Of a stretch of DNA of 64,000 bases, positions 1 to 47,173 are shown one piece after another. The position numbers were made by a program, and so were the translations under genes. The notes under the pieces are model-generated. The model worked only from the letters and a program-made list of their open reading frames with translations. It ran no database searches and was not told the DNA's origin. The DNA is taken from positions 18,023 through 82,022 of IMG/VR virus record IMGVR_UViG_3300026488_000021; one strand, given 5' to 3'. The stretch is from a virus. Within the stretch, counting starts at the first letter, position 1; every line of letters begins with the position of its first letter.

Positions 1-3000
1 AAGTTGTTTTATTGAGATACTGAATTAGAAAAATTATTACAAGATAAAGATATAAGATGATTGCAAAATTATTATAAAAATCTAGACAAAAAAGCTGCAC
101 AATATGATTTGGAGAATGCTGATGCTGCTCTAACCACATTAAACAGTCATACATATTTCCTAGAAAAAGTAAAAGATAAAATATTTTTTGCAGATAAAAC
201 TACGGTTGAAAGGAATACAAAAAGAATTTATAAAGATTGATTTAGAGATTTTTCTAATTTATATGATATCCGGAATGAAAGTAAATTTAAATATTGAGAT
301 ATCCTAAACCAATTAAGAAAAGAGAATAAGACAGAAGAGTATAATATCTCTGAAATACTAAACCAGATAAATCAACAAAGATGAACAAATTATAAATTTG
401 TATGATTTGTTAATAAAGATACTGCTCTTTTACAGGATTCTGAATGAAATGTTTTTGTAGTAAATACCTGAATGTTCCAACAAGATATCGATACAATCAT
501 AAATTACTTTTCTGCTGATATCGGTTGAGAATATTGAATGAAAGATTTTACACATGCAAAAGAAATAACAAAAAACAAATTTTGAGAAGATATTGCTAAC
601 AATATTTCAGATGTAGAAAAAGTTGCATATATAGAAGAACAATATAAAGAATTAAAAAAGAGATTCGATGAGTGAAAATTGTGAGACTTAACAAAAGAGG
701 AGGTTCAAGAACTTATCAGTTGATTAGAGAAAGAAGCAGATAGTTTGATAGAAGATAACCTAATAAGATATACTGAATTAGTTCATAAGTTTCCTGAGTA
801 TATAACTGGGAAGTTAGAACATAGATTTTGAGAAAATGTATTATCTACATTTTGAATTAATAGTTATTTAGTAAATTTATTGTCTAACATTGAATTAATT
901 GAAGAATATTCACCTGAATTAGCTACTATGATTAAGAAAATTTTAAGGGTTAATGAAACAAAAGTAAAGGATTTACAGATAGATTTATTAAAAAAATTAA
1001 ACACTTTAATTACAGAAAATCCTAAAATTGTAGATGAAATAGAGCAATACGAACCTATGATGGTAGTATTAGATACATTACAAAAGAGAATAAAAAACTT
1101 AGAAACAGATAAATGAATAAAATTAGAGGATGAGTTTTATATGTATTATCAAAAAGAATTATTAAATTTAGATAATTATGAAGATAAACTGATAAAATTT
1201 AAGAATTACATAAACCAATATTTAGAGAATATTGGTAAATGAGATTATAAGATTACAGATGAACAAATTATGGTTCAGAGGAATTTGTTCGAAAGGAGTA
1301 AAAATGCATTTTCAAAAGAATGATATGTTTGATATGCGTTCTTAAAATACTGAATTGATACTTCTATTAGAGTCCCATTTAAATATAAAATTAAAACTGA
1401 CTTACAGGTAATAACAAGAGAATTTGTAAAAGCTTATCCAAAGTTGGATGAAAATATATTATATGATAAGATAATAGATATTTTTTCTAAAAACAAAAAC
1501 TTAATTGTATGATTTAATAATCTTAGATCAACATTTGAACCTTTTGATAAAGCATACCAAGAATCTGTTTGAAGCCAATATAGTTTGATAGATATATTAC
1601 TACAAAAAGCTTGAATGAATGAAAACAATATTAAGAGAATCAAAGGGGATTTATATTGAAAATCAGTATTTTGAGATAATAAATGGTATGAAGTAATTTG
1701 AATAATTAGAGACATTTATTATAAAACTTCTATGACATTATTTGGTGGTAAAGGTTTATCTATTGCTTTCCAGAACTTATATACAATTCCTGAATCATTA
1801 TCATTATATCAAATAAAAAATCCTTGACAATATAAGGAATTCTTAAATATATTAAATGAATTAAATAATCAAAAAATAAAAAAGAAATTAGAACAAGAAA
1901 TATTCTCGCCATTAGAAAATGAGATTATAAAATATTCTGAAAATAACAAACTTACTTGGGATATTAGGATAGCAAATAAATTCAATTTATGGTTATACAA
2001 AATTCTTAAAAAATTTAATTTAAATAGTTTAGCTGATGCTGTATTAAACAAGAAACTTGTTCAGCAATTGAATTGAGTTATATTTAATCCTGCTGGTGTG
2101 GTAGATGAATTAGCTAAAAAAACTTTTGTTAAAGACAAAATATTTGACTATGTTCTTAACGATGCTTGAATTGATATGAATGAATTGAAATTATTAGTTG
2201 ATAAAGCTAACAAATGAGATTTAGAAGCATTAGCTACAATTAATAAACTAATAGATGATGCGAATGAAAAAGCTTTGGTAGAATATACAAGATTGTATAA
2301 AGTTGCTTATCATGCAGGTTTAACTAGGAATTCGTTTTCTAGACATATCTTCTTAAATATATTCTCTTCTTGGTGAAGTAAAAAATTTGCGTCATATATG
2401 ACAGACATATTTATTACACCTATTAGAGATGCTGCTACAATTTATAGAATAACTTGAAGTACAAAAGCAGCAACAGCTAGTTTATTTTCATCACTAGTTA
2501 AATCAAAAAGATTACAAGCAATTCTAAAACAATTATATATGGCTTCATTTTTAATATACAATATCCATAAAGATACAGAAGTTGACTGAGATGAAGTAAA
2601 AGCTATAAAAGAAGCACTAATCCCATTCCAAGCATTTCAATCGTTTGTTTTAACAAGAGCTATTGGTAAAGCTATTGACTACTGACTTATAGCATACAAA
2701 GATGATGCTGATTTTTGAAAAACATTGTTATGGACTTTACACTGATTTTGACAAGCAGTATTTAGTAATTTTATGAAAGATGTAAAATACTTTTGACAAT
2801 TAGTGTGACAACCAGCTATATATTTAGCTATGTGAAAAGATGACCAAGCTATTTACACATTCTTTTATAATCTTGTAAATGCAGCAAATACTACATTATC
2901 GTATAATATGTTTGATCAATATAAATGAGTATATACAACAAGATTTGATAGTAAAACTAGATTGTGATTGTTAGAATGAGCCTTATGATTTCCATTAACA

Positions 3001-4470
3001 AAATGGTGAGAAGAGAAATGGGATCTTGTAAATGAGAACAAATATAAAGAGTTTTTAAAGAAATGAATGTCTAGTATAGTAAAGGATTATAAATTATCAT
3101 TTTTATGAAGTTATTACGCAGCCAGTTATTCATATAAGTTTACTAAGCTATGACAACAATTAGATAGTGATGTTGACTTTAAAATAATGAAAGAAACTTG
3201 AGAAATTCCTGATAGTTTATTAGAAGATGATAAGAGTATAAATAAATTGTATAACTTTATAACAAAATCTGATTACTTACAATGATGGAATCTGGAATGA
3301 TGAACAACTGAATGGCAGTGAAAATTGTGATTAATATTTAATGAGCTACAAGAAAAATGATATGACCTAAATAAACTTATTGTAATAGTTAATTCTAGTT
3401 TAATTAAGTGAGATACACAGACAGCATTAAAATTGCTAGCTTGATTAGACACAAAAGCAGGTGCAACTATGATTACAGCATATATGGCGCAAAAGGAATA
3501 CCAATCATTAGTAAATAATTTAAAAACATCTTTGTGAGTTAAGAAAATATCTGATATACCACAAGACACATTAAGACAAATAAAAGTAAATATTATTAAA
3601 AAATACCTTCCTGTATTAGAATGATTAGATAAGCATTTACACTCAAAAGTATCATGATACTACATACAAAAAACATATTGAGATAATAAAGACTTATATA
3701 CAAATGATATTAAAAAAGATATGGAATTAGAGTTATTTGCAGAACTAATAGATTTACAAAAAACAGATTTTAATAATCAATTATTTACTAGTATCCCTGC
3801 TAAGTTATTGAGAGATACTGATAAAGAAAACTTCCAACCTATGTTAGATAGACTTTGGAATTTAATAGATAATTTATGAGTATCATCTACTACAAAGACT
3901 ATTGCTAAAACTGCATTGTTATATGCAAATTTAAATAAGGTTAAGGATTTATTATTATCTAATCCAGATAAATATTGACCTTACGTAAATAAACTTGCTG
4001 ATTTAATTTGGGAAACAGACAAGAGAATTCAAGCTAATCCGGAAATATTAGAATGATTATTTTCAAACAATACAAAGGTAAAACCAAATAGATTTGGATT
4101 AGTAGATACAAAACCTGCTAAATTAGCTAGGCATATAAAGAAAGAGATTTCTAAACTAAAAGAGTTAACTTTAAAACTACCGACATATAAACCAAAAGCA
4201 TTCTCAAAAATTAAATATTCGGTATACAATCCTAAAACTTTAAAAACTAATATTAAAATAGATGCAAATAAAATCTGAATTAGAAGAGAAAAATTGAAAC
4301 CAATCAACCCAGGACAACTTAGAACTGAAATCCTTAGAACAAGAGAAAAATATATTAAAGCCAAAAGAGCTAGGAAACCTAAAACAAAACCTGTTGGAAA
4401 AACATACAAGAAGACAAAACCAAATAAAGCAACTAGAACAAAAATTAAACCAAGTAGGGTTAACAGATAA
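1..4470 (+). CDS. Giant (>1489 aa, 5'-truncated) protein, probable internal virion/DNA-ejection protein
   Basis: Frame 1 reads open to TAA at 4468-4470 with TGA=Gly. Helical, with hydrophobic segments and a K/R-rich tail. Function inferred from size and context. Confidence 0.6.
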
Positions 4471-13077: not shown

Positions 13078-13127
13078 ACGTCAGAGTTTTTTATTTAAAT
13101 AAAAAAACCTTGCCGCGATGGCAAGGT
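13067..13127. terminator. Convergent intrinsic terminators
   Basis: GCTCTGAC-tagac-GTCAGAGT+T-run (+) and ACCTTGCC-gcgat-GGCAAGGT with T-run on (-). Confidence 0.7.
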
Positions 13128-13294
13128 ATCGCCTGGACTCATACTGAGCACACAGGACTTTTGCATAGATTGCTGGGGCCTCACGCCAGCGTAGTGTAGC
13201 AGAGCCTGTTACTTTATTGCCTTGGCTAGTAGGCGAACAGGATACTACACTTTCGGGGAGACCTCCTCGCTAGCCACAGCTCCCCAAGACCTGT
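13103..13294 (-). ncRNA. Putative structured ncRNA (multi-stem junction with loop-loop pairing)
   Basis: GC-rich island. Stems GGGGAG/CTCCCC, GTGTAG/CTACAC, CCTGTT/AACAGG, GCTGG/CCAGC; closing ACAGG/CCTGT; loops TGGCTAG and CTAGCCA are complementary. Confidence 0.6.
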
Positions 13295-13304
13295 ATTTAT
13301 ATAA

Positions 13305-13730: not shown

Positions 13731-13804
13731 CGGAGCTGACGGGATTCGAACCCGCGACCTCCTGCGTGACAGGCAGGCGTTCTAGCCAGCTGAACTACAG
13801 CTCC
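13731..13804 (-). tRNA. tRNA-Asp(GTC), CCA not encoded
   Basis: GGAGCTG..TAGTTCAGCTGG..CCTGC-CTGTCAC-GCAGG..GTTCGAATCC..CAGCTCC-G cloverleaf. Confidence 0.95.
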
Positions 13805-30064: not shown

Positions 30065-32939
30065 TTAAAAGCTTAAAGATATTATTCATTTTTCTATTTT
30101 TTGTTTTGCTTCTTCAATTTTTTTTATAGAGTATCATTCATCTTGCAATTTCTTTACAATACAATCCCAATCTCCTCAACATTCTTTCTCTGCTGTAAGA
30201 TACTCTGCTAGACTTACCTGATAATAATCATCCTTTTTTAAATATATAGTTAAAAAGATAAATAACAAATCACTTCAATAATTTATTCTTATTTCTTTAT
30301 TATTCCAACTACACTTAGATAAAGCTAACTTCATGTTGTTTTCCACGTCATTGTTAGCTCTCATAGCTAATTTTTTAATACAATTCTTTTTATTTAAACC
30401 TTGTAAATCTTTAGTATACCATAACATTGTTGCGTGATACATATCAACTAATAGATATTCCTTGTATTCTTTTTTAGGAATATATTTTCAGTCCATAACT
30501 ATCTTTATTCATTTTTTATTTACATAATCTGTAATATAATCTAGAATTATTTCTGCAGCTTTTTCGTTTATATTATACATTTTTTTTATTTTTAATTTTA
30601 AAATTCTTCTATTAACTTAAACAAATCTATTAACTTTATCCTTCATGTTTTTGTTTCTATATAAACCCTTAATCAAGGGTATCTGTGCACATCCTCACTA
30701 TATTCTCAATCTAGTTTATCCATCAGTGCTACAAATCTATCTTCCATCTTAAAGACATCTGTACTTGAATATACATCATCTGAGAAAATAAAGCTTCAGT
30801 CTGCTTCAATTATCATTTCTCTTTTACCAGTATCATAACGTTTTAGTTTTACTTCGTATTCTACTTCCTTTTGTAACTCTTCCTTAGTGTATTTTTTTGT
30901 AAATAGTCAAGGAATAATATAACTTTCTCAATCTTTACTTTTTTGAGGAATTATAGATTTATCTACAAATGCTAAAGTCATATTTATTTATTTAGAATGT
31001 AAAATATTTTTAATAGCTATCTTAAGATAGCTTATCTCACAAGTAGCAGGGGTCATATCGTATACTCTTTTTAAATATTTTACTACTTGTGGCAGGATAC
31101 CTTTTTCTTTACAAAAGGTATATAATTCTTGTTTAGTCATCTGTCTAGTAAATTAAAAATTAAAAAGATTTTCTAGTTTTAACCAACTGTTGAAGGATAT
31201 CTCTTAAAACATGTTCTTCAACGGTTGTTATAGTCCATCACTTTTCTTTTAGTTTTTCTTGTAGTTTTGTTATTAAGTTTAAATCTTGAGCTGTTTTTAA
31301 CATTTCATTATAGTTTTTATTTTCTAACATTTTTTTCTTTTTAATAAGTAAAAATATCTTCAGGTCGTTTATATTCTCAATCAGGTTCTGCTCATTCTAC
31401 TAAATCTATATAATCGTCTTCATCTTTAAATTTTACTTTAAGTATACCCCGTTTAATAAATGCATCTTCTATATCGTCTATAGTTTTTCAGTATTCTTCT
31501 AATTTCTCAAGTATTCTTTCTCAATCAAAATCTACATAACATTTATATTCAGCTGATATACCTTCAGCTTTGCTTGATTGTATTTCTTTCAACATTTCTT
31601 TTATATTCATTTTTTTTATTTAATTAAATTATAAAATTCTTTAAAACAATTATATTTTCTACTAAATTTCACTTCTTCACAACCTATGATTTCCAATAAT
31701 CTTTTACAGTTTTCGATGTTTCTTCATTGATTAAGAAGCTCAAATTTAAACTCATCTATTAACTTAACACATCAATTTTTAGCTTCATACACGTCAATTT
31801 GATAAACTCAACAATTCACAATTCTATCTAATAACTCAACATCTCTACTTTCAAACTTATCAAATACAAGTACTACTCCTAGATGATATTCTACATCATA
31901 TGTTTTATTGTTTTTACTTTTAACTCACCATCATTTTTTATCCGAATAAGTGATGGTTATTTCATCGTCTTCAAGTTTTATTTTCTTTTTATTTGTTATA
32001 ATTGCTATGTCTTCTAATTCAGGACTTATTGGTTTGTCTTCCGACCAAATAGCAACAAGTCCAGCTTCTTTCAACTCTTTTTTAAATCCTTCTGACTGGT
32101 TTTTAAGTAAAAAAAACTTTTGATTTATTTTTTTATAAGTAATTATTTTCATTTTTATTTTTAAATTTAAGAATTAAAAACACCAGCACTTGCTGTATCT
32201 AGTAGTAGCTGGTCTTCAAGGATTTTTAGCAGGTCTTGTCTTAGACCTGCTTTTTTTGCTACTTTAACGGCTTCTTTTAACTCTTCTACTGTTCAATACA
32301 AACAAATGTTTTCTATTGCTTGGTTCACCAACCAAGCATCTTTACTTGTAAGATTTTCAATTTGCTTCTTAATATTCATTTTTTTATTTTAAGAAATAAA
32401 TATTATAGTTTATAAACTAAATTTATAGTTTAAATTATGAAGTTCTTTATCAGCATATTCATCAATTACATTATATATACCATCCTCTATTGCCCATCTC
32501 GGAGTTCACCCAGTAAATTTTATATCTACATAAGGAACTGTATACTCCTTATCTTCATCTTCGTTTTCTACTTTTTCTGCTATATAACTAATAAGTTTAT
32601 TCAATGTTTTAGTATAATCAATTTTTCAATCTATTGTGTATCCTTTTAGATTTACCTTTTCTTCTTCATTAATCTGTTCTATGATTTCTTCTAATACATT
32701 CTCTCTTGCAATCTGAAATATTCTTTCTAAAACATCCATCCTTAAATCATTAAGATAGATATATACACTTTTTATCATTACTTTTTTTAATTAAGAAATA
32801 AAAACTGGTACTATCTATTTATATAGTACCAAAAGCCGTGCTTCTTGCAATAAGTCAGAAGCCGGCTCCTTCACTCTTTATCTAAGCCATATTTTAATAG
32901 GGCTTTAATAAGCCTCTTAATCCTTCTAAGTTGTTTCAT
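30065..32939 (-). other. Run of small early genes including 30065-30580, 30598-30981, 30988-31140, 31341-31610, 31616-32152, 32410-32778, 32811-32939
   Basis: ORFs preceded by A-rich leaders (often AAATAAAAAAATG), with hairpins between some. Confidence 0.6.
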
Positions 32940-33014
32940 TTTTTTTATTTATAAAATATAAAAAACCTGGAATCTCTAAATTAAAGAAATTAATCTACGT
33001 AGAACTTAGCTTCT

Positions 33015-33317
33015 CTAACTTCCCGCTCGTCTGCAAGGCACGCACATACCTGCTTTTCGAGCTGCTAAGTCCTGGGCTTCTTCATAATTAGAAGCCCGAA
33101 TTAAATCGTTCAGTTGTAGCACACCTTGGTGATAAGCTACAACATGATATGGACGCAAGATTTCTGCGTCCATAAACTTTTTAGCAAATTCAACAGCTTC
33201 CTCATAGCTGTTGAATTCTTTTTCAAAGTCAGCAACCCTTCCTGATGGGTTGTTATTATCCTCAAAGTAAGGGTCGTAAGTATAGACCCTTACTTTATAT
33301 TTTTTAAATTCTTTCAT
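33015..33317 (-). CDS. First gene of the leftward (early) transcript, hypothetical
   Basis: 100 aa, no TGA, repeated (S/N)YEEA motif. Confidence 0.7.
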   Translation of the reverse strand: MKEFKKYKVRVYTYDPYFEDNNNPSGRVADFEKEFNSYEEAVEFAKKFMDAEILRPYHVVAYHQGVLQLNDLIRASNYEEAQDLAARKAGMCVPCRRAGS

Positions 33318-33339
33318 TTTTTTATTTTTAAAGAATAAA

Positions 33340-33928
33340 ATATAAAAACACGATAAGTCGTGCTTTTATATTTGCGGTCGACTATATTTTTTTCTGGAGC
33401 CTCGACCGCAAGGCTCAACAGGAGTCTTTTTTGTTTAACCGGTGTTTCCCCTCACCGGTAAAACCACCCGTGTAAATATATTTAATCCAAGAGGCGAGCC
33501 AGGCGGTGCTTTGAACTCGCCCCTTGTTGAATTTAGTTTTTATCCTATCTCGAGCTATAACCAGTAGGCAACTACTCCTACTGGAAACGCTCGACCACTC
33601 GCCCCGTCGGTCCGTTGCTCGTCCACACCAACCAAGCGTAAGCTACGCTACACGCCCAGCCGGTGCTTCATCCAAGCTGTCCCCCGCTTCGGGGCGGTGG
33701 ATGCGGAGCCGGAGCCCCGCTAATGTTAAATATCTACCCTTTTAACTGATAAGCAAGGGGTAGGACCAGCCGTCCTTGCTTACCAGCCCAGCCCAGGAAT
33801 TGAAACCTATAGGCTGGTAGCAGGTTTTAGCCCCTGCTAGGGCTTTATAAGTATTACGGCTTAATACCGTAACACTATCAAGGAACTTCGTTTTAGCCCC
33901 TCCGTCGGGGTATCCGTTCCCTGATGCT
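33340..33928 (-). ncRNA. Putative ~600-nt highly structured leader / large ncRNA
   Basis: GC-rich island between a promoter and the first early ATG; more than 10 hairpins; repeated GGGGCTAAAAC. Confidence 0.55.
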
Positions 33929-33934
33929 GTTAGT

Positions 33935-33962
33935 AGTATAATCATTTTTTTAAAATTTTCAA
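33935..33962 (-). promoter_or_regulatory. Early promoter
   Basis: TTGAAA-N16-TATACT, embedded in the inverted repeat AATCATTTTTTTAAAA...TTTTAAAAAAATGATT. Confidence 0.65.
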
Positions 33963-33981
33963 GACTTTTTTAAAAAAATGA

Positions 33982-34234
33982 TTTAGATTGTATAGAAGGA
34001 GTTTTAATAAAAGCCTTATTGAAGCTGGTTTTTAGGTGTTATACAATGTAAAAAAAATAAAAATTAAATTATAGGTATGTAAAAAAAATAATGAAATATG
34101 TTTCATAATGCGTAAAATTTTGAAATTATAAATTTTTATAGGTATAAAAAAAAAAAATAAAATTTTACATTGTATAGTGGTTTAAACCCTAGTATATATG
34201 GGGTTTCTCAAAGATGGGGTCTATACAATCTAAA
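33982..34234. repeat. Two inverted 72-bp arms flanking an AT-rich core; putative replication origin
   Basis: Each arm = TTTAGATTGTATAGA-N43-TATACAATGTAAAA (33982-34053 and reverse complement of 34163-34234). Confidence 0.6.
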
Positions 34235-34863
34235 CGTTTTTGTGTAAAAGAGAATTGAAAGATTTAAAAGGTTATTATAGAGACACTAGATGTATAATAA
34301 GTAATTAGACATACTTAAAATAAAAAAGTAAGATAAAAAAGGATTGAAAAAGTTAAAAAGAGAGTTTGAATTTTTTTGATTTTTTAAAAAATTTTTCTTC
34401 ATCTATTAGTTTAGTTTACATAAAATATAATTTATGTAAAGTAGACCGGGGGGGTGCGGGGGGGGTGGCGCGCACCGCACAGGACGCGTGTAAAGCAGAC
34501 CGCAGGTTAAACCTAGAATGTAGGGCTAAGGTCTGAAAAGTATAGGAAGAAACTTTGTGAAATTGAAAATCTCGCAAGTTTGATGTGCTGTAAGGTGTAT
34601 CTATCGTCAGCAACCAAAAAACTTTAAAATTTGAAAAAATCGTAATGAAAGTATGCGGGGTTTCGGCGTCAATTTTACCCTAAAATTTTGTAGGGCTAGC
34701 TTGTCTACCCCAAGCCTTACCCAACCGTTGTGTCGCTGCGCCGCTTCTTTGTTGTCTTCATTGTTTTCTTTCCGCTTGTTTGTCCGCTAATAATACAGCT
34801 TTCCTCTTCTTTCTTCGGGGGCGCCCCTCCCCAAGGTACTTCTTTTTTGTAGGGCTTATCCAA

Positions 34864-34926
34864 TTCCCTCCTAAAAACCTTCCGATTAAACAACCTTCCC
34901 TCCCAAACCTCCGATTAAACAACCTT
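34864..34926 (+). repeat. Imperfect ~30-bp tandem repeat
   Basis: TTCCCTCC..AAACCT(T)CCGATTAAACAACC twice. Confidence 0.7.
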
Positions 34927-35163
34927 AAACCTACTAATTAAGGATTTAAACCTCTAACTTAAAACCTAAACTTACACTTACTAATTTAAATAAACTTACT
35001 AACATTACTAACTTAATCATTTTAGTATATAAACAATTTTAACTAAATACTAACAAACTCAATTTAATAAAATAAGTAAAAATACTAAGAATATTATTTT
35101 AATCAGAATATTCTTTTACTAAGAATAGTAAAACTCAAATTATACTAAAAAGCTAAGATAATC

Positions 35164-35191
35164 TTGAAACTAAACTGAATATAATTATAAT
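35164..35191 (+). promoter_or_regulatory. Rightward (late) promoter
   Basis: TTGAAA-N16-TATAAT. Confidence 0.65.
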
Positions 35192-35225
35192 GTTAGTATA
35201 TTTATAATTTAAGTAAATTACTAAA

Positions 35226-35774
35226 ATGAGAATTCAAGCAAAGACAACAGATAATATTTTGATTGAATTGAGTAAAGCATTTGGTTGAACAAAATGATTA
35301 GAATACTATATTGAGTATTTAAAGAAATGAACAACAGGGAGTGAGGTAGCTGATATGTACTTGGAGAGCAAATGATTAACAAAAGGGAACACTAGTGTTT
35401 TATCAGAAGAAAAGTTAAAAGAACAAATAAAGAAGGAATACGAAGAGAAAATGAGGAAACTTGAAGAGCAAGATGAGGAGATTATAGAGAGGTTGGAGTG
35501 AGAGATTAGTAGATTACAAGAGAAGATTGAGTATTTAGAAAAAGCTGAACCTGCTTATGATTGTGATAAAGTTATAATATCATTAGCTAATAAATTAAGA
35601 CAAGCTTATAATTATGCTGTTAGGTTATCAGATAATAAAGAGGATTGAAGTAGATATGAAAGAGATGCTAGGCTGTTGAAGAAGGAATTTGAGAAGAAAT
35701 TTTGAGTGGATATAGAGAATTATGACGAACCGATCGAGGAATTAGTAAAAAATTTTAAAGAGTTAAATAAGTAA
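35226..35774 (+). CDS. Coiled-coil hypothetical protein upstream of TerL
   Basis: 182 aa, in the usual TerS position but with no TerS motif recognised. Confidence 0.55.
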
Positions 35775-35775
35775 T

Positions 35776-38700
35776 ATGTTAGCATTAAAACTACACGATT
35801 TAAAAAACTGAGTAATTTACCATCCACATCCTTTAAAGAACCCGTTAGCTTGGGACAAGGAGGATTTTGTATTTTATGATAAGAGAGTTGATAAATTACT
35901 AAAATGGAAGTTAAGATATCTTTATAATAATTGAAATCCTAAGATTGTAAAGAAAGAAATAGAAATATTAAATACTACGTATACATTGGAAGAGTTAGAA
36001 GTTCCTAAAAACATTCCTGAAGATATAAAAGTTATTTTACAAGAGTTTGAAGACACAAAAAAAGAGTATATAGCAGATGCTGTTAAAAAAAAACTATATG
36101 GAGATTTAGAATATACAATAGCGGTTGAACTTCTTATTAGTGAGAAAAAATGAATTAAATTAGAAAATGTTGATAAAAATAATTTGGAATATTTGTTTTC
36201 GCTACCGTTTAAAACTTTTTATAAGCAAGCTAAAAGATTGATTGATAGATGAGAAATTACTAATACAGATTTAGATAATATTGTTATTAAAAAAACATCT
36301 AAATATTATTATAATCCTAAACTACCAGTCCCTTATATACCACTATTAGCAAGAGAACATGTTTACACACCAGATTGAAATCCTTGGAATCCGAAACTTG
36401 GTCAGATATATTATTTGTATCATGAAGTTGAAAATACGGTTAACTTATTATTATCAAAAAGACAATATGGTAAAGGAGGGTATGTATCATTAAAATGATT
36501 TCAATATAGAATGGCTGATTGAACATTTAAAAAGGCTAAGGATATAAAAGTCTGAGATAAGTTATTAGCTTCTGATAAAAGGTGATATACTAACGTAGTT
36601 GGCATATCTCTCACAAAAGAACCTGTTTATAAAATTACTCTTTCTAACTGAGCTTATTATTATGCTACTACAGAACATCAACATGTAACTGCTGAGAATT
36701 ATAAAAATTGAAAGTTTGTTTGACCTTATAAAAATACAGTTGAACTTCAAAAATGAGACTTTATACCTTATATGCATAATATAGAGATTAAGTGAAAACA
36801 TGAGAATATTTATAAAATGAAATTATTGTGATATTGGTTGTGAGATTGAACAGTTGCTAGTGATAGTTATGTAAACACAATGTCTTTAGAAATTAGTTGC
36901 TGAACTAATCAAGCTTATATAGATAAGCTTATTCAATATGCTAAATATTTGTGATTAAAAGCAAGAGTGGAGTTAGATACTAGAAAACAAAATCATTGTG
37001 TACATATATACTGATTTGATAATATGAAAGATATTTATAAAAATAAAAGTTGAACTAAATATATTCCTAATTTTGTGTTTGGATTAGATAAAGAATGAAA
37101 GCGAGCTGTGATAGAATGATTATTATGAAGTGATTGATATATACAGATAAAACACAACTGAGTTGTTACAATAGAGTACTGTAGTAAATCTGAAGAACTT
37201 ATTAGAGGATTGCAAATATTGTTAGCAGATGTTTGAGTGTTGTCAAATATTAAAAGCAGATTTATGAAAACGAATTTTAATAAACATAAATGATGAGATA
37301 CCTATTGGTATTTGTATATTACAGATAGACAAAGTGTTTTAGATATATTTGAACACACAAATCTTGATCACAAGCTTAATTATGAAGATGCTTATAATAT
37401 TATTACAACAAACACTAAATTATCCAATTCTAAACATTCTATAATTCCTATGATTGCAAAAGAAGAACAGAAACAAGTAATATCGTGGGAAGAAAAAGTT
37501 AGATTAGGAATTAGAAATATTCAGTATAATTTCCAAAGACGGAAAGCTCCTTACTACTGATTAGAACACTGGTTAAAATATCATTGGGTTAGAGTAGAAA
37601 GTATTGAAAAGATAGGAGAGGAAGAAGTTATACATATACAAGTGGATTGAGATAATTTGTTATGGACAGGATGAGTTTTAACACATAATTCACTTCTTAC
37701 TACCTTAATTGCATTTCAGCATTTAATGATGGATTGAGAGAATTCTATACTATATTTGGTTGAGGCTGAAAATAAAATACTTCCAATCATGCAATATTTT
37801 GAAAGAGGTTTAAAGAAATATAAGCAGGCTTGAATTTTTTCTATGTCAAAAAATGATTATACTATAACTTGTAAAATAACTGGTAATGTATTAAAGTTTA
37901 TGTCAGCATGAAGTAGGACTGGTGTTAAAGGATATTCTTTTAAAAAGGTAATAATTGATGAAGCTGATTACATAAGTGACGATGTATTCTTTTCTTTAAT
38001 TCCAATATTTAATAAACCTGGTGGTAAATTTTATGCGGTATCAACAGTAGCGTTTGATGTTAAATGAGGTTCAACTTGGTTTTATGATTTGGCTAAAGAT
38101 ATAGAACTAGGATTAAATAAAATGATTTGAGACATTCCATCACAAGCACTAACAATCACTCTGTATGAAGATGAGTGAGTTACAAAGCAACAATTACAGA
38201 TGTTTGAGATAATCCGTAAAAGAGATCCAGATCGTTTTTTGTGAGATTACATGTGTATTAGGTGAGATCAAGATACATTGTGGGATAAAAATAAATTGAT
38301 TAGCCCTATTAGTTCAGATGAATATAAAAAGAAGAATGTAATAAATGTCTTAATTTCTCTGGATCCAGCTAAAAAATATGACTATGGTGGATTGGTTGTT
38401 AGTTATATTATTGAAGAAGACTGAAAAAATTATATAGTTCCAGTAGTAGCTGATGAGTTAGAAAAGATGGAATATTATCAACAAATAGAGATTGTTAAAA
38501 AATATGTAGATTTGGCTTTAATAAATCAATTCCCAGTTAATGTTATTATAGACGAAACTGGTGTTTGAGCTGCTGTATCAGAAATGTTAAAGCAACAAAT
38601 ACCAAATGCACACTTAATTAAATTGATGTATACCGCAGGGAATAATATTACAGAAAAAAATGGAGCTATTTATGTTCCTAAGAAAGAATTAGTTGATACA

Positions 38701-38982
38701 TTATCAACACTTGCATCAGAATGAGAGGTTAAAATTCCGTATGATTTAAAGAATTTGATAGAACAGCTTGATACTTATAGGTATGTAAATGGGAAATACG
38801 AAGCTATTACTTGACATGATGATGTGATAGAAAGTTTTTTGAATACAACATTTATTTATAATTATAAACTAAAAAAACACTTGAAATTATTTTGAACATC
38901 TGTAAACTGACAAACAGATGATATCATAACAATACCTCCGCCTAGTCAAACTAGACAAAGATTAAGAAAGTTTCTTTATTAA
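35776..38982 (+). CDS. terL: Terminase large subunit containing an intein
   Basis: KRQYGK|S Walker A, VIIDEADY Walker B, SLDPAKKYD, IDETGVG, HDDVIES. Confidence 0.92.
36475..37689 (+). mobile_element. Intein (405 aa) with LAGLIDADG homing endonuclease
   Basis: MADGTFKKAKDIKVGD, ATTEH, LLGYWLGDG, IEGLLGSDG, VESIEKIG, VLTHN|S; splits the P-loop GK|S. Confidence 0.92.
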
Positions 38983-45796: not shown

Positions 45797-47173
45797 ATGA
45801 CAATACAAGAATATTATAATAGACTTGCTAATATGTCAGGAGAAGAGTTGTATAAAAAAATCAGACAAAAATATTGAGATGTATCCTGATTTGCGTTAGC
45901 ATATAATAAAGCTTTAAATAATTATGCAGGAGCAGATAAAGATAAATATAGAGATTTGATAAGTAAGATTGAAGCAAAAGTTGGAGAATATATGAAGGCT
46001 CAACAAAATAAAAATGTTCAGAAAAATAATACTCAGTCCATAAGTGTTGATAACTTGCCTACGAAGGTGGATTTTAATACAAAGATAAATAAACCTAAAT
46101 TACCAAAAGAACCTACTCCGTATGACCTTTGATTCCAGTCTTGATTTAATTCAGCTTTATGACAATTTTCGTCTAAACTGTCTGAGTTACAAAAAGCTAC
46201 AAATAAAGCATTAGAAAGTTTTAAGAATAAATTATGATTAACTGATAAGCAATTATTTAACTTAAAAAATAGATTTGATGTATTTAATCAAAAAGTAAAT
46301 CTGATTGATAATATTATAAAAAGTAAAGATGAAGTATATCAAAACTTATTTAAATGATTGAAAGAGAATCTAGATACATTATCAGAGAAATATGGTGATA
46401 CATATGCGAAGATATGAGAAAGATTAAATAATTATGAAAAGTTGATGTGAGATACATTTAATAAAATGAAAGAAAGACTTAATAAAATTTGAGAGAACTA
46501 TAAGAAAATATTACAATTTAATCAAGCTGCCGCTGGTAGCGCAGCAGAAAAGCAATTAAGATGAGCTACTGGGAAGTGAGCACAATTAAGGGTTGCTAAT
46601 TATTTGCAAGAATTCGCACAGAAATGAGATACAGAACTAGCAAAATTACAGGTGCAGTTAGCACAACAAGCAAATGCATTAGATCAAGAATTCTTGAGAC
46701 TTAAGAAACTTATTATAAATGATAAAAATTTAACTGATAGAGAAAAAGTTAAGGTGTTAGATGATTTACAAAATAGATATAACAATTTATTAAATTTACA
46801 AGCTAAGTGGTGAATTAGTAAAGTAGACGCATATGCTGAACCTAGGCAAGAACAATTAGCAAAAGAAGAGAGAGATGTTGAAGCAATACAAGCACAAAAA
46901 TTACAAAATGTGTTACAAAAATTAAATTATGAGTGGGCTACAAATCCTAAAAATAGGGATATAATAATAAATAAAATTATTTCACAATTAAAGGTTCCAA
47001 TACCAAAAGAATACTTACAAAAACTTAAAACAGCAAAGGATTTTAATGAGGCTTTGTTAGAATTAAAGAATTATGTAAACAAAAATACCCAAGTACGAAG
47101 TGCATTAGATAAACTATTACAATATAGTAAGACAAAAAATAATTTACAATCTAATCAATGAGCCTCCAGCTAA
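45797..47173 (+). CDS. Probable DNA ejection / internal virion protein
   Basis: 458 aa, Q/K/A-rich coiled coil, AAEKQLRGATGKG; follows the nozzle gene. Confidence 0.6.

Follow-up and report, generated by a model that had tools for sequence, protein, structure and literature searches.

Results

Organization and genetic code of the phage genome

The window analyzed here is a stretch of 64,000 nucleotides, comprising bases 18023 to 82022 of an IMG/VR phage contig of 82,022 bp and 28% GC. A metagenome run from a hydrothermal vent contains this DNA in full and may be its source; among the sequencing runs listed for the stretch of the element, none is an RNA run. Under translation table 11, only four open reading frames of at least 120 amino acids were found. 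When TGA was read as a sense codon, the window was full of genes, in some of which TGA accounted for as much as 16% of the codons. In addition, a 100-aa gene of the window has a homologue (3202-3516) on the related contig L003, described below, in which both in-frame TGA codons lie opposite glycine codons (GGA and GGT) of the window gene. Because of the TGA-rich genes and this TGA/Gly alignment, we assigned the phage to genetic code 25 (TGA = Gly). From that code, we infer that the host is a bacterium of the Gracilibacteria/Absconditabacteria type.

The genes are laid out in two arms separated by a 1.9-kb noncoding region, and the element that is the subject of this study lies within that region. 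The leftward arm, on the minus strand from 33317 down to approximately 14100, encodes an SF2 helicase, a PD-(D/E)XK nuclease, an MT-A70 methylase, a dUTPase, and YopX. The gene content agrees with the view of the earlier note that the element precedes a leftward early operon, which here is an arm of early and replication genes of ~19 kb (~20 kb in that note). The rightward arm, on the plus strand from 35226, encodes a large terminase with an intein, a P22/SU10-type portal, and a capsid protein free of TGA codons. Its strong promoter (35164-35191, 11 of 12 consensus matches) sits 34 nt ahead of the first gene of the arm, and since this distance is so short, a long leader is peculiar to the leftward arm.

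Two other features of the genome deserve mention. The large terminase (35776-38982, plus strand; 1068 aa) carries a LAGLIDADG endonuclease in its intein, while the orthologue on L003 (5089-6999) is 636 aa long and has no intein. Furthermore, there is a second GC island at 13104-13303 on the minus strand (52% GC), at the far end of the leftward arm and downstream of a tRNA-Asp gene. It has a terminator at its end (13127-13107), lacks a T-arm motif, and is probably another small structured RNA.

Promoter, terminators, and extent of the element

The earlier note described a TTGAAA-N16-TATACT promoter ahead of a GC-rich tract, and this is what we found on the minus strand at 33962-33935. The sigma-70-like promoter, which we call P_L, consists of TTGAAA (33962-33957), a 16-nt spacer, and TATACT (33940-33935). 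With 10 of 12 consensus matches, it was the top minus-strand promoter-like site between 32900 and 35400 in a consensus scan. Transcription would start near 33928 on the minus strand, giving a predicted noncoding transcript of ~590 nt (33338-33928) with a GC content of up to 60%.

At its 3' end, the predicted transcript runs into an intrinsic-terminator-like hairpin (33373-33338, minus strand; inverted repeat I1) of the form AUAUAAAAGCACGA-CUUA-UCGUGUUUUUAUAU, which has a 16-pair stem, a 4-nt loop, and a U-rich tail, with a GC core of just 3 pairs. The consensus scan thus found here the GC-containing stem-loop and U-run by which a Rho-independent terminator is recognized, and because of this hairpin and U-run, which the earlier note does not list, the element is potentially a discrete transcript. 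A second terminator-like hairpin of the leftward unit follows ~500 nt further on (32832-32805, minus strand), so that the layout reads promoter, 590-nt folded RNA, terminator, 100-aa gene, small open reading frame, and second terminator. Beyond it, the consensus scan returned no further minus-strand terminator over ~19 kb, until 13127-13107. The same kind of scan produced no second conspicuous promoter ahead of the 19-kb operon. Given that promoter calling is hard at 28% GC, however, the downstream genes may have promoters of their own.

Composition, folding, and coding capacity

No GC island of the contig is larger than the element, whose GC content is 0.57-0.60 against 0.28 for the genome and which is densely folded. 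As RNA, the minus strand of 33330-33935 had a predicted free energy of -262.6 kcal/mol (z -9.5 versus shuffles), which bears out the description of a GC-rich hairpin tract in an AT-rich genome. The plus strand reached -208.6 kcal/mol (z -5.1), leaving the minus strand 54 kcal/mol better. This advantage is due to G-U pairs, which the earlier note had pointed out in several stems and which make up 21 of the 183 pairs (~11%) in minus-strand stems of at least 3 bp; a single 16-bp helix holds 7 of them. When DNA parameters were used instead, the two strands folded alike and significantly (z -6.5 and -7.3). A GC-regressed folding scan of the 64-kb window in 150-nt steps identified 32776-33900 as the sole long contiguous run of excess folding, and within the stretch from 33451 to 33900 the excess was confined to the minus strand.

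The element appears to lack coding capacity. Under code 25, no open reading frame in the element exceeded 79 aa and none was protein-like, in line with the earlier judgment that the tract has no credible reading frame. AUG occurs once in the element, where dinucleotide-preserving shuffles gave an expectation of 5.9 (P = 0.004), and G exceeds C on the RNA-like strand. These results support a noncoding element on the minus strand that is structured at the level of RNA. A different origin, namely the capture by the phage of a GC-rich coding fragment from a donor, was ruled out given the lack of a protein-like frame and the extreme fold.

Predicted helices and domains

Every hairpin listed in the earlier note was present in the sequence. 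H1 (33925-33916/33886-33877, minus strand) is formed by AUCAGGGAAC/GUUCCUUGAU, with CCCC-GACGGA-GGGG nested inside. The others are GUGUUACGG/CCGUAAUAC, UAGCAGG/CCUGCUA, UAAGCAAGG/CCUUGCUUA, UCGAGC..CCAGUAGG/CCUACUGG..GCUCGA, GGCGAG/CUCGCC, ACCGGUG/CACCGGU, and UUGCGGUCGA/UCGACCGCAA. CAUCCA/UGGAUG and CUACCC/GGGUAG were also found, as alternative or pseudoknot pairings.

The predicted helices, all on the minus strand, fall into three domains. The 5' module (33744-33930) comprises H1 to H5: beyond H1, these are H2 (33876-33850), H3 (33839-33818), which is a UAAAA-loop hairpin with the loop GGCUAAAA, H4 (33817-33788), and H5 (33787-33745), whose loop CUACCC is able to pair with GGGUAG at 33741-33736. 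The central GC-rich domain (33548-33722) contains H6, which has a UCCG tetraloop, the long arm H7 (33700-33595), which includes the 16-bp helix with 7 G-U pairs, and H8 (33594-33550). In the 3' domain (33372-33526), H9 (33526-33488), H10 (33464-33433), and H11 (33411-33372) are separated by A/U-rich linkers. A predicted long-range helix between CUGUUG (33416-33421) and UAACAG (33932-33927) would enclose H1 through H10.

With respect to potential targets, RNA positions 175-189, on the 3' strand of H5, form a perfect 15-nt complement to the mRNA of a plus-strand gene of 458 aa (window 46238-46252). It was the only antisense match of the RNA within the window. Its score was borderline (blastn-short E 0.029), and it may be due to chance.

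Search for known RNA families

The earlier note had proposed running Infernal cmscan against Rfam and had raised ROOL and GOLLD as a size class to which the RNA might belong. In a cmscan of the whole 64 kb against Rfam 15 at gathering scores, the sole match was the tRNA-Asp at 13731-13804. Neither ROOL (RF03087) nor GOLLD (RF01998) matched at the gathering score or at E<=10, and nothing beyond size links the element to these families. Likewise, there was no gathering-level match in the element to RNase P, tmRNA, 6S, group I or II introns, riboswitches, ribozymes, or rRNA. A permissive-filter search of 32800-35300 at E<=10 yielded nothing relevant, the best scores being 12-19 bits against thresholds of 36-114. 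ARAGORN called the tRNA-Asp and no tRNA or tmRNA in the element, where the string closest to a T arm, GUUUCAAUUCC in H4, has a loop of 8 nt instead of a GGUUCRANUCC-type loop and is not accompanied by an acceptor stem. Finally, a blastn search of 50,697 INPHARED phage records was negative, and IMG/VR likewise holds no record that resembles the element. Since no family or tool matched, the element is not ROOL, GOLLD, RNase P RNA, tmRNA, an intron, or a known leader.

Relatives of the phage

Protein-anchored searches of IMG/VR with the portal, the capsid, a capsid relative (P0002), capsid alignments, and an alignment of the 100-aa protein recovered no relative, and neither did a capsid-alignment search of the GTDB genome set. 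An exhaustive HMMER search with the capsid found P0002, which is 52% identical, and P0004, a 78%-identical fragment. The sole relative recovered together with its contig, in one metagenome scan, was L003 (Ga0256836_1000093), which has a capsid of 50% identity and the same TerL-portal-capsid order as the window. Contigs from a second study carry the element's stretch at ~87-98% identity, so close variants of it exist, some nearly identical and others ~88% identical.

The control region of L003 is homologous in parts to that of the window. The two phages have in common an operator palindrome, TAATGAAATATRTTTCA, which occurs once in the window (34090-34107) and three to four times in L003 (2250-2512); the 95 matches to it in IMG/VR were single chance occurrences, none on contigs encoding related proteins. 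At 3750-4000, L003 has approximately 11 tandem TTGTATACAA sites, the equivalent of which in the window is a set of four TGTATAG-type sites. GCCCTACA is present three times in the window (34519-34526, 34689-34696, and 34848-34855) and four times in L003 (2858, 2898, 3595, and 3638), always on the minus strand. In both phages it is confined to the intergenic control region, against a chance expectation of 0.2; an iteron or some regulatory site is one possible explanation. A GC block with long G/C runs (CCGGGGGGGTGCGGGGGGGGTGGCGCGCACCGCAC, plus strand) at 34440-34540 in the window and 2620-2740 in L003 is recognizably conserved, unlike the RNA. It may be a site for packaging or recombination, or an origin.

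The counterpart RNA of L003

L003 has a similarly placed promoter, TTGATT-N16-TAATAT (read by eye), which precedes a counterpart RNA. The region behind it is 526 nt long and GC-rich, folds at -256.2 kcal/mol on the minus strand (z -11.2) and at -218.5 kcal/mol on the plus strand, and has terminators or U-runs at its end, ahead of the next genes. It looks like two units. RNA-A is ~210 nt long with a terminator at its end. RNA-B carries an 18-codon mini-ORF behind the usual gene-start motif, followed by pseudoknot-like hairpins (1569-1625, minus strand) and a tRNA-like module (1376-1500, minus strand). This module has a 7-bp acceptor stem (GGGCCUG/CAGGCCC), a T arm (CCGGG-UUCGAAU-CCCGG), and two inserted hairpins with complementary loops. 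ARAGORN did not call it, and Rfam returned only the tmRNA 3' end (12.7 bits) and mascRNA (23 bits).

Direct comparison of the two RNAs was negative: there was no blastn match, the Smith-Waterman score fell below the shuffle mean (z -0.6), and a covariance model of the central domain (R1) had no match in L003. A conserved, ornate fold of ~600 nt therefore gains no backing from this comparison, because the L003 sequence at the corresponding position cannot be aligned. A model of the 5' 187 nt (R2), however, aligned over its full length to L003 1696-1875 on the minus strand, at the start of RNA-A. It scored 14.4 bits, where a spurious, hairpin-rich site of L003 scored 17, and the model-fitted alignment had an E value of 0.0076 over 85 kb and of 6e-5 within the corresponding 700 nt.

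In the R2 alignment, H1 retains its architecture: the outer stem has 10 bp, the bulge has 3 nt, and the loop of the inner hairpin has 6 nt. At least 7 of its pairs are altered on both sides. The 7-bp stem of H3 is also kept, 5 of its pairs being altered on both sides, and its 8-nt loop is similar in the two phages (GGCUAAAA versus GAAUAAAA in L003). H5 keeps its GCUGG...CCAGU ends. Moreover, a long-range UAACAG/CUGUU helix is common to both RNAs and closes just before the terminator region; in L003, UUUAACAGC/GCUGUUAAA closes RNA-A just ahead of its terminator. Because the spurious 17-bit match outscores the 14.4-bit alignment, which is itself fitted by the model, these likenesses are only suggestive of a 5' module that would be homologous between the phages. 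The remaining ~400 nt appear to be specific to this lineage.

The downstream 100-aa gene

The first gene downstream of the element (33015-33317, minus strand) starts 20 nt past the terminator, is 100 codons long with no TGA, and is itself rich in hairpins. Its L003 homologue (3202-3516, minus strand) is sited differently and shares 65% nucleotide and 51% protein identity. In a set of 5.8 billion proteins, the 100-aa protein had no homologue but itself. Its AlphaFold model had a pLDDT of 55.7, and the ESM Atlas yielded small phage hypothetical proteins only.

Although this is a conserved protein gene, near-perfect hairpins run throughout it, and a stretch of 386 nt has a folding z of -10.6. The positions of the first three hairpins agree between the two phages, and some pairs have changed on both sides (e.g., at EFNSYEEAVEF versus EFASLEEAREF). 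Selection for structure thus seems to act inside the coding sequence. In one strain of the second study (X4), the 5' half of the gene (window 33171-33317) is replaced by 146 unrelated letters between flanks of 87-96% identity, which suggests mosaic variation among strains at the start of the early operon.

A duplicated loop motif

The earlier note reported that one short string, GGGGCTAAAAC, occurs twice, and our count was the same. There are exactly two copies, at 33890-33900 and 33824-33834 on the minus strand, and none elsewhere in the 82-kb contig, where 0.26 would be expected by chance. In the RNA, the first copy of GGGGCUAAAAC (33890-33900) lies in the 3' part of the inner hairpin and internal loop of H1, and the second (33824-33834), 66 nt downstream, forms the loop of H3. 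When IMG/VR was searched with the motif pair, the sole match was an unrelated GC-rich contig with tandem 36-nt repeats. On this high-GC viral contig (IMGVR_UViG_3300037706_000080, positions 1-130), the 36-nt units end in GGGGCTAAAAC and are separated by ~23-nt spacers, an arrangement that is CRISPR-like in appearance with unusually short spacers. The matches in the GTDB genome set were genuine CRISPR arrays of bacteria that do not use code 25.

It is conceivable that the copies of GGGGCUAAAAC mimic CRISPR, as a degenerate mini-array on the plus strand or as an anti-repeat decoy on the minus strand directed against host CRISPR RNA. The reverse complement of the motif, GTTTTAGCCCC, begins real CRISPR repeats of 29-30 nt with a period of ~66 nt in Desulfurella, a Deferribacterales MAG, Helicobacter, Campylobacter, and others. 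The copies here are likewise 66 nt apart, and copy 1 on the plus strand loosely resembles a whole CRISPR repeat. Yet the two copies have only 12 nt in common, the 36-nt "spacer" between them is hairpin H2, and no plus-strand transcription is predicted. Code-25 hosts (Gracilibacteria and Absconditabacteria) are reported to have mostly type V-A and in some cases III-A CRISPR systems (PMC10746230), which also argues against mimicry, and none of the genomes bearing the GTTTTAGCCCC repeat uses code 25. A CRISPR mini-array would show at least two near-identical, full-length repeats matching a host array, and the copies here do not. We therefore consider mimicry extremely improbable and treat the resemblance as a coincidence.

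Discussion

Our results reveal a real RNA-like fold at the head of the leftward arm that matches no Rfam family. As a new RNA class it is at most a candidate, since the usual standard is statistically supported covariation across several independent homologues and a single relative was recovered. It is probably a lineage-specific, modular immediate-early leader and noncoding RNA. As the best explanation, held tentatively, we propose that the element serves both as a cis-acting leader of the leftward early transcript and as a stable, terminated RNA, with a 5' module that lets polymerase pass the two terminators in the manner of put or nut. Under this proposal, the sigma-70-type RNA polymerase of the host would initiate at P_L near 33928 and transcribe ~590 nt of GC-rich hairpins. 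Transcription could then stop at the intrinsic terminator (33373-33338), releasing a discrete RNA with stable hairpins capping both ends, or it could continue past this site into the 100-aa gene and then the ~19-kb early/replication operon. The 5' module would act in cis, on its own polymerase or on the nascent RNA, to allow passage of both terminators.

Several findings favor such a leader. The minus strand folds far better than the plus strand as RNA, the element is part of the sole long run of excess structure in the 64 kb, and it has no credible reading frame and few AUGs. Should P_L be the promoter on which the early and replication genes depend, two terminators stand in the way of polymerase. 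The element is a natural candidate for their control, because it is transcribed just before them and because its promoter-proximal part alone shows signs of conservation. Promoter-like and terminator-like sites flank it, and minus-strand terminators are found only at 33373-33338, at 32832-32805, and near 13.1 kb. By the consensus scans, its position is that of put and nut sites, behind an early promoter and ahead of the operon's first terminators. L003, with its similarly placed promoter, its strand-biased folded region, and the R2 alignment to the start of that region, is consistent with this reading as well, as are the variants of the stretch in the second study. On the other hand, ~590 nt far exceeds what is needed, given that put-type antiterminators are ~70 nt long (PMC9378689). 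In addition, we found no alternative pairing for the 5' half of the terminator stem, the RNAs of the two phages are not similar in primary sequence, and the L003 homologue of the 100-aa gene does not lie downstream of its RNA.

Alternatively, the RNA may act in trans, as a discrete, stable, ornate molecule of the ROOL/GOLLD size class that is made early and serves as a particle, a scaffold, or a decoy for a host factor. The promoter-to-terminator unit of ~590 nt ending at 33373-33338 would suit such a molecule, as would the extreme strand-specific fold, the depletion of AUG, and a GC enrichment that is typical for structured RNAs of AT-rich genomes. The RNA also has motifs repeated internally and displays its unique motif twice in loops, and ROOL and GOLLD, which are also associated with phages and comparable in size, set a precedent by assembling from RNA alone (PMC12286853, PMC5737381). 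But known ornate RNAs retain sequence and fold across phyla, whereas ~400 nt of this one have no counterpart in a phage with a 50%-identical capsid, and no Rfam model matched even at E<=10. On balance, a role in trans seems doubtful, if possible. The divergence between the two phages could also mean that the fold has no specific function, and that the tract is a generic hairpin-rich spacer stabilizing or insulating early transcripts, like the RNase III-processed leader of T7, or an accumulation of GC-rich hairpin repeat elements. Hairpin density, rather than sequence, is what has been maintained between the phages, and the neighboring 100-aa gene is packed with hairpins too. We nevertheless find this quite unlikely: the tract is present in one copy, with no similar sequence elsewhere in the 82-kb contig, the order of H1, H3, and H5 and the loop of H3 look conserved, and the depletion of AUG points to selection on the RNA itself.

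The location of the element raises yet another scenario, in which it is a replication-linked element beside the origin-like palindromes at 33982-34234, as a G-rich R-loop or primer transcript (like ColE1 RNA II or T4 oriF) or as the ssDNA priming hairpins that the earlier note had offered as an alternative. The element is ~20 nt from an AT-rich region of symmetric inverted repeats, at which the arms diverge and cumulative GC skew is at its minimum. Its RNA-like strand has more G than C, and its size is near that of ColE1 RNA II. The significant DNA-parameter folds on both strands leave the priming hairpins some room, and the asymmetry in G-U pairs weakens them: the 54 kcal/mol advantage of the minus strand is one expected of RNA rather than of a duplex or a cruciform. 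Furthermore, transcription heads away from the palindromic core, an ordinary terminator ends the element, and no link to a primase or initiator was found. A role in replication is improbable. The cis-acting leader remains our preferred reading.

A broader view is that the element represents a new class of modular early RNA in phages of hosts with TGA = Gly, of the Gracilibacteria/Absconditabacteria type. In such a class, a conserved 5' module of ~190 nt, composed of H1, the GNNUAAAA-loop hairpin, and the GCUGG hairpin, would reprogram transcription or capture a host factor, and would be joined to interchangeable 3' cargo domains. The cargo would be the 400-nt ornate domain here, and in L003 the mini-ORF, the pseudoknot-like hairpins, and the tRNA-like module. 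At present we rate this generalization as rather unlikely.

Gene regulation in phages of the unculturable candidate-phyla bacteria that use code 25 is almost entirely unexplored. If the 590-nt RNA is the first product of the early promoter, it would be either a cis-regulatory leader of very large size or an ornate phage RNA of a new kind. With promoter, RNA, and terminator contained in ~650 bp, it is also a clonable object for studying the control of early transcription. More generally, the comparison with L003 suggests that RNAs of this kind can be modular and fast-evolving, and for that reason conservation-based searches would miss them.

Several known systems resemble the element in part. 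ROOL (~580 nt) and GOLLD share with it their size class, their location in phages, their many helices, and their noncoding nature (PMC5737381, PMC12286853). They differ in that the element has no covariance-model match, does not lie beside tRNAs, and is mostly unconserved in L003. The put RNA of HK022 is a promoter-proximal antitermination RNA of ~70 nt with two stem-loops (PMC9378689). Like put and the nut sites of lambda, the element would be a folded nascent RNA placed immediately behind an early promoter and ahead of the first terminators, and signs of conservation are found in its promoter-proximal part. At ~590 nt with at least 11 helices it is far larger than put, to which no likeness in sequence or structure was seen.

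ColE1 RNA II is a highly folded primer precursor of ~550-600 nt made from a sigma-70 promoter beside a replication origin. The element would be transcribed away from its presumed origin, ends in an intrinsic terminator, and has no equivalent of the antisense RNA I that we could find, yet it is similar in size, in folding, and in having a sigma-70 promoter that adjoins an origin-like region. Finally, the early RNA leader of T7 is processed by RNase III, and in P4 (CI) and P1 (C4), regulatory RNAs derived from the leader are released by RNase P. The element is comparable to all three in that it, too, would be a long structured leader without translation, at the start of an early operon of podovirus-like type whose first genes are separated by hairpins. 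No processing sites are recognizable from its sequence. While the RNA of the window has no tRNA-like module, the L003 region does end in one, which, as in the leaders of P4 and P1, RNase P could cut.
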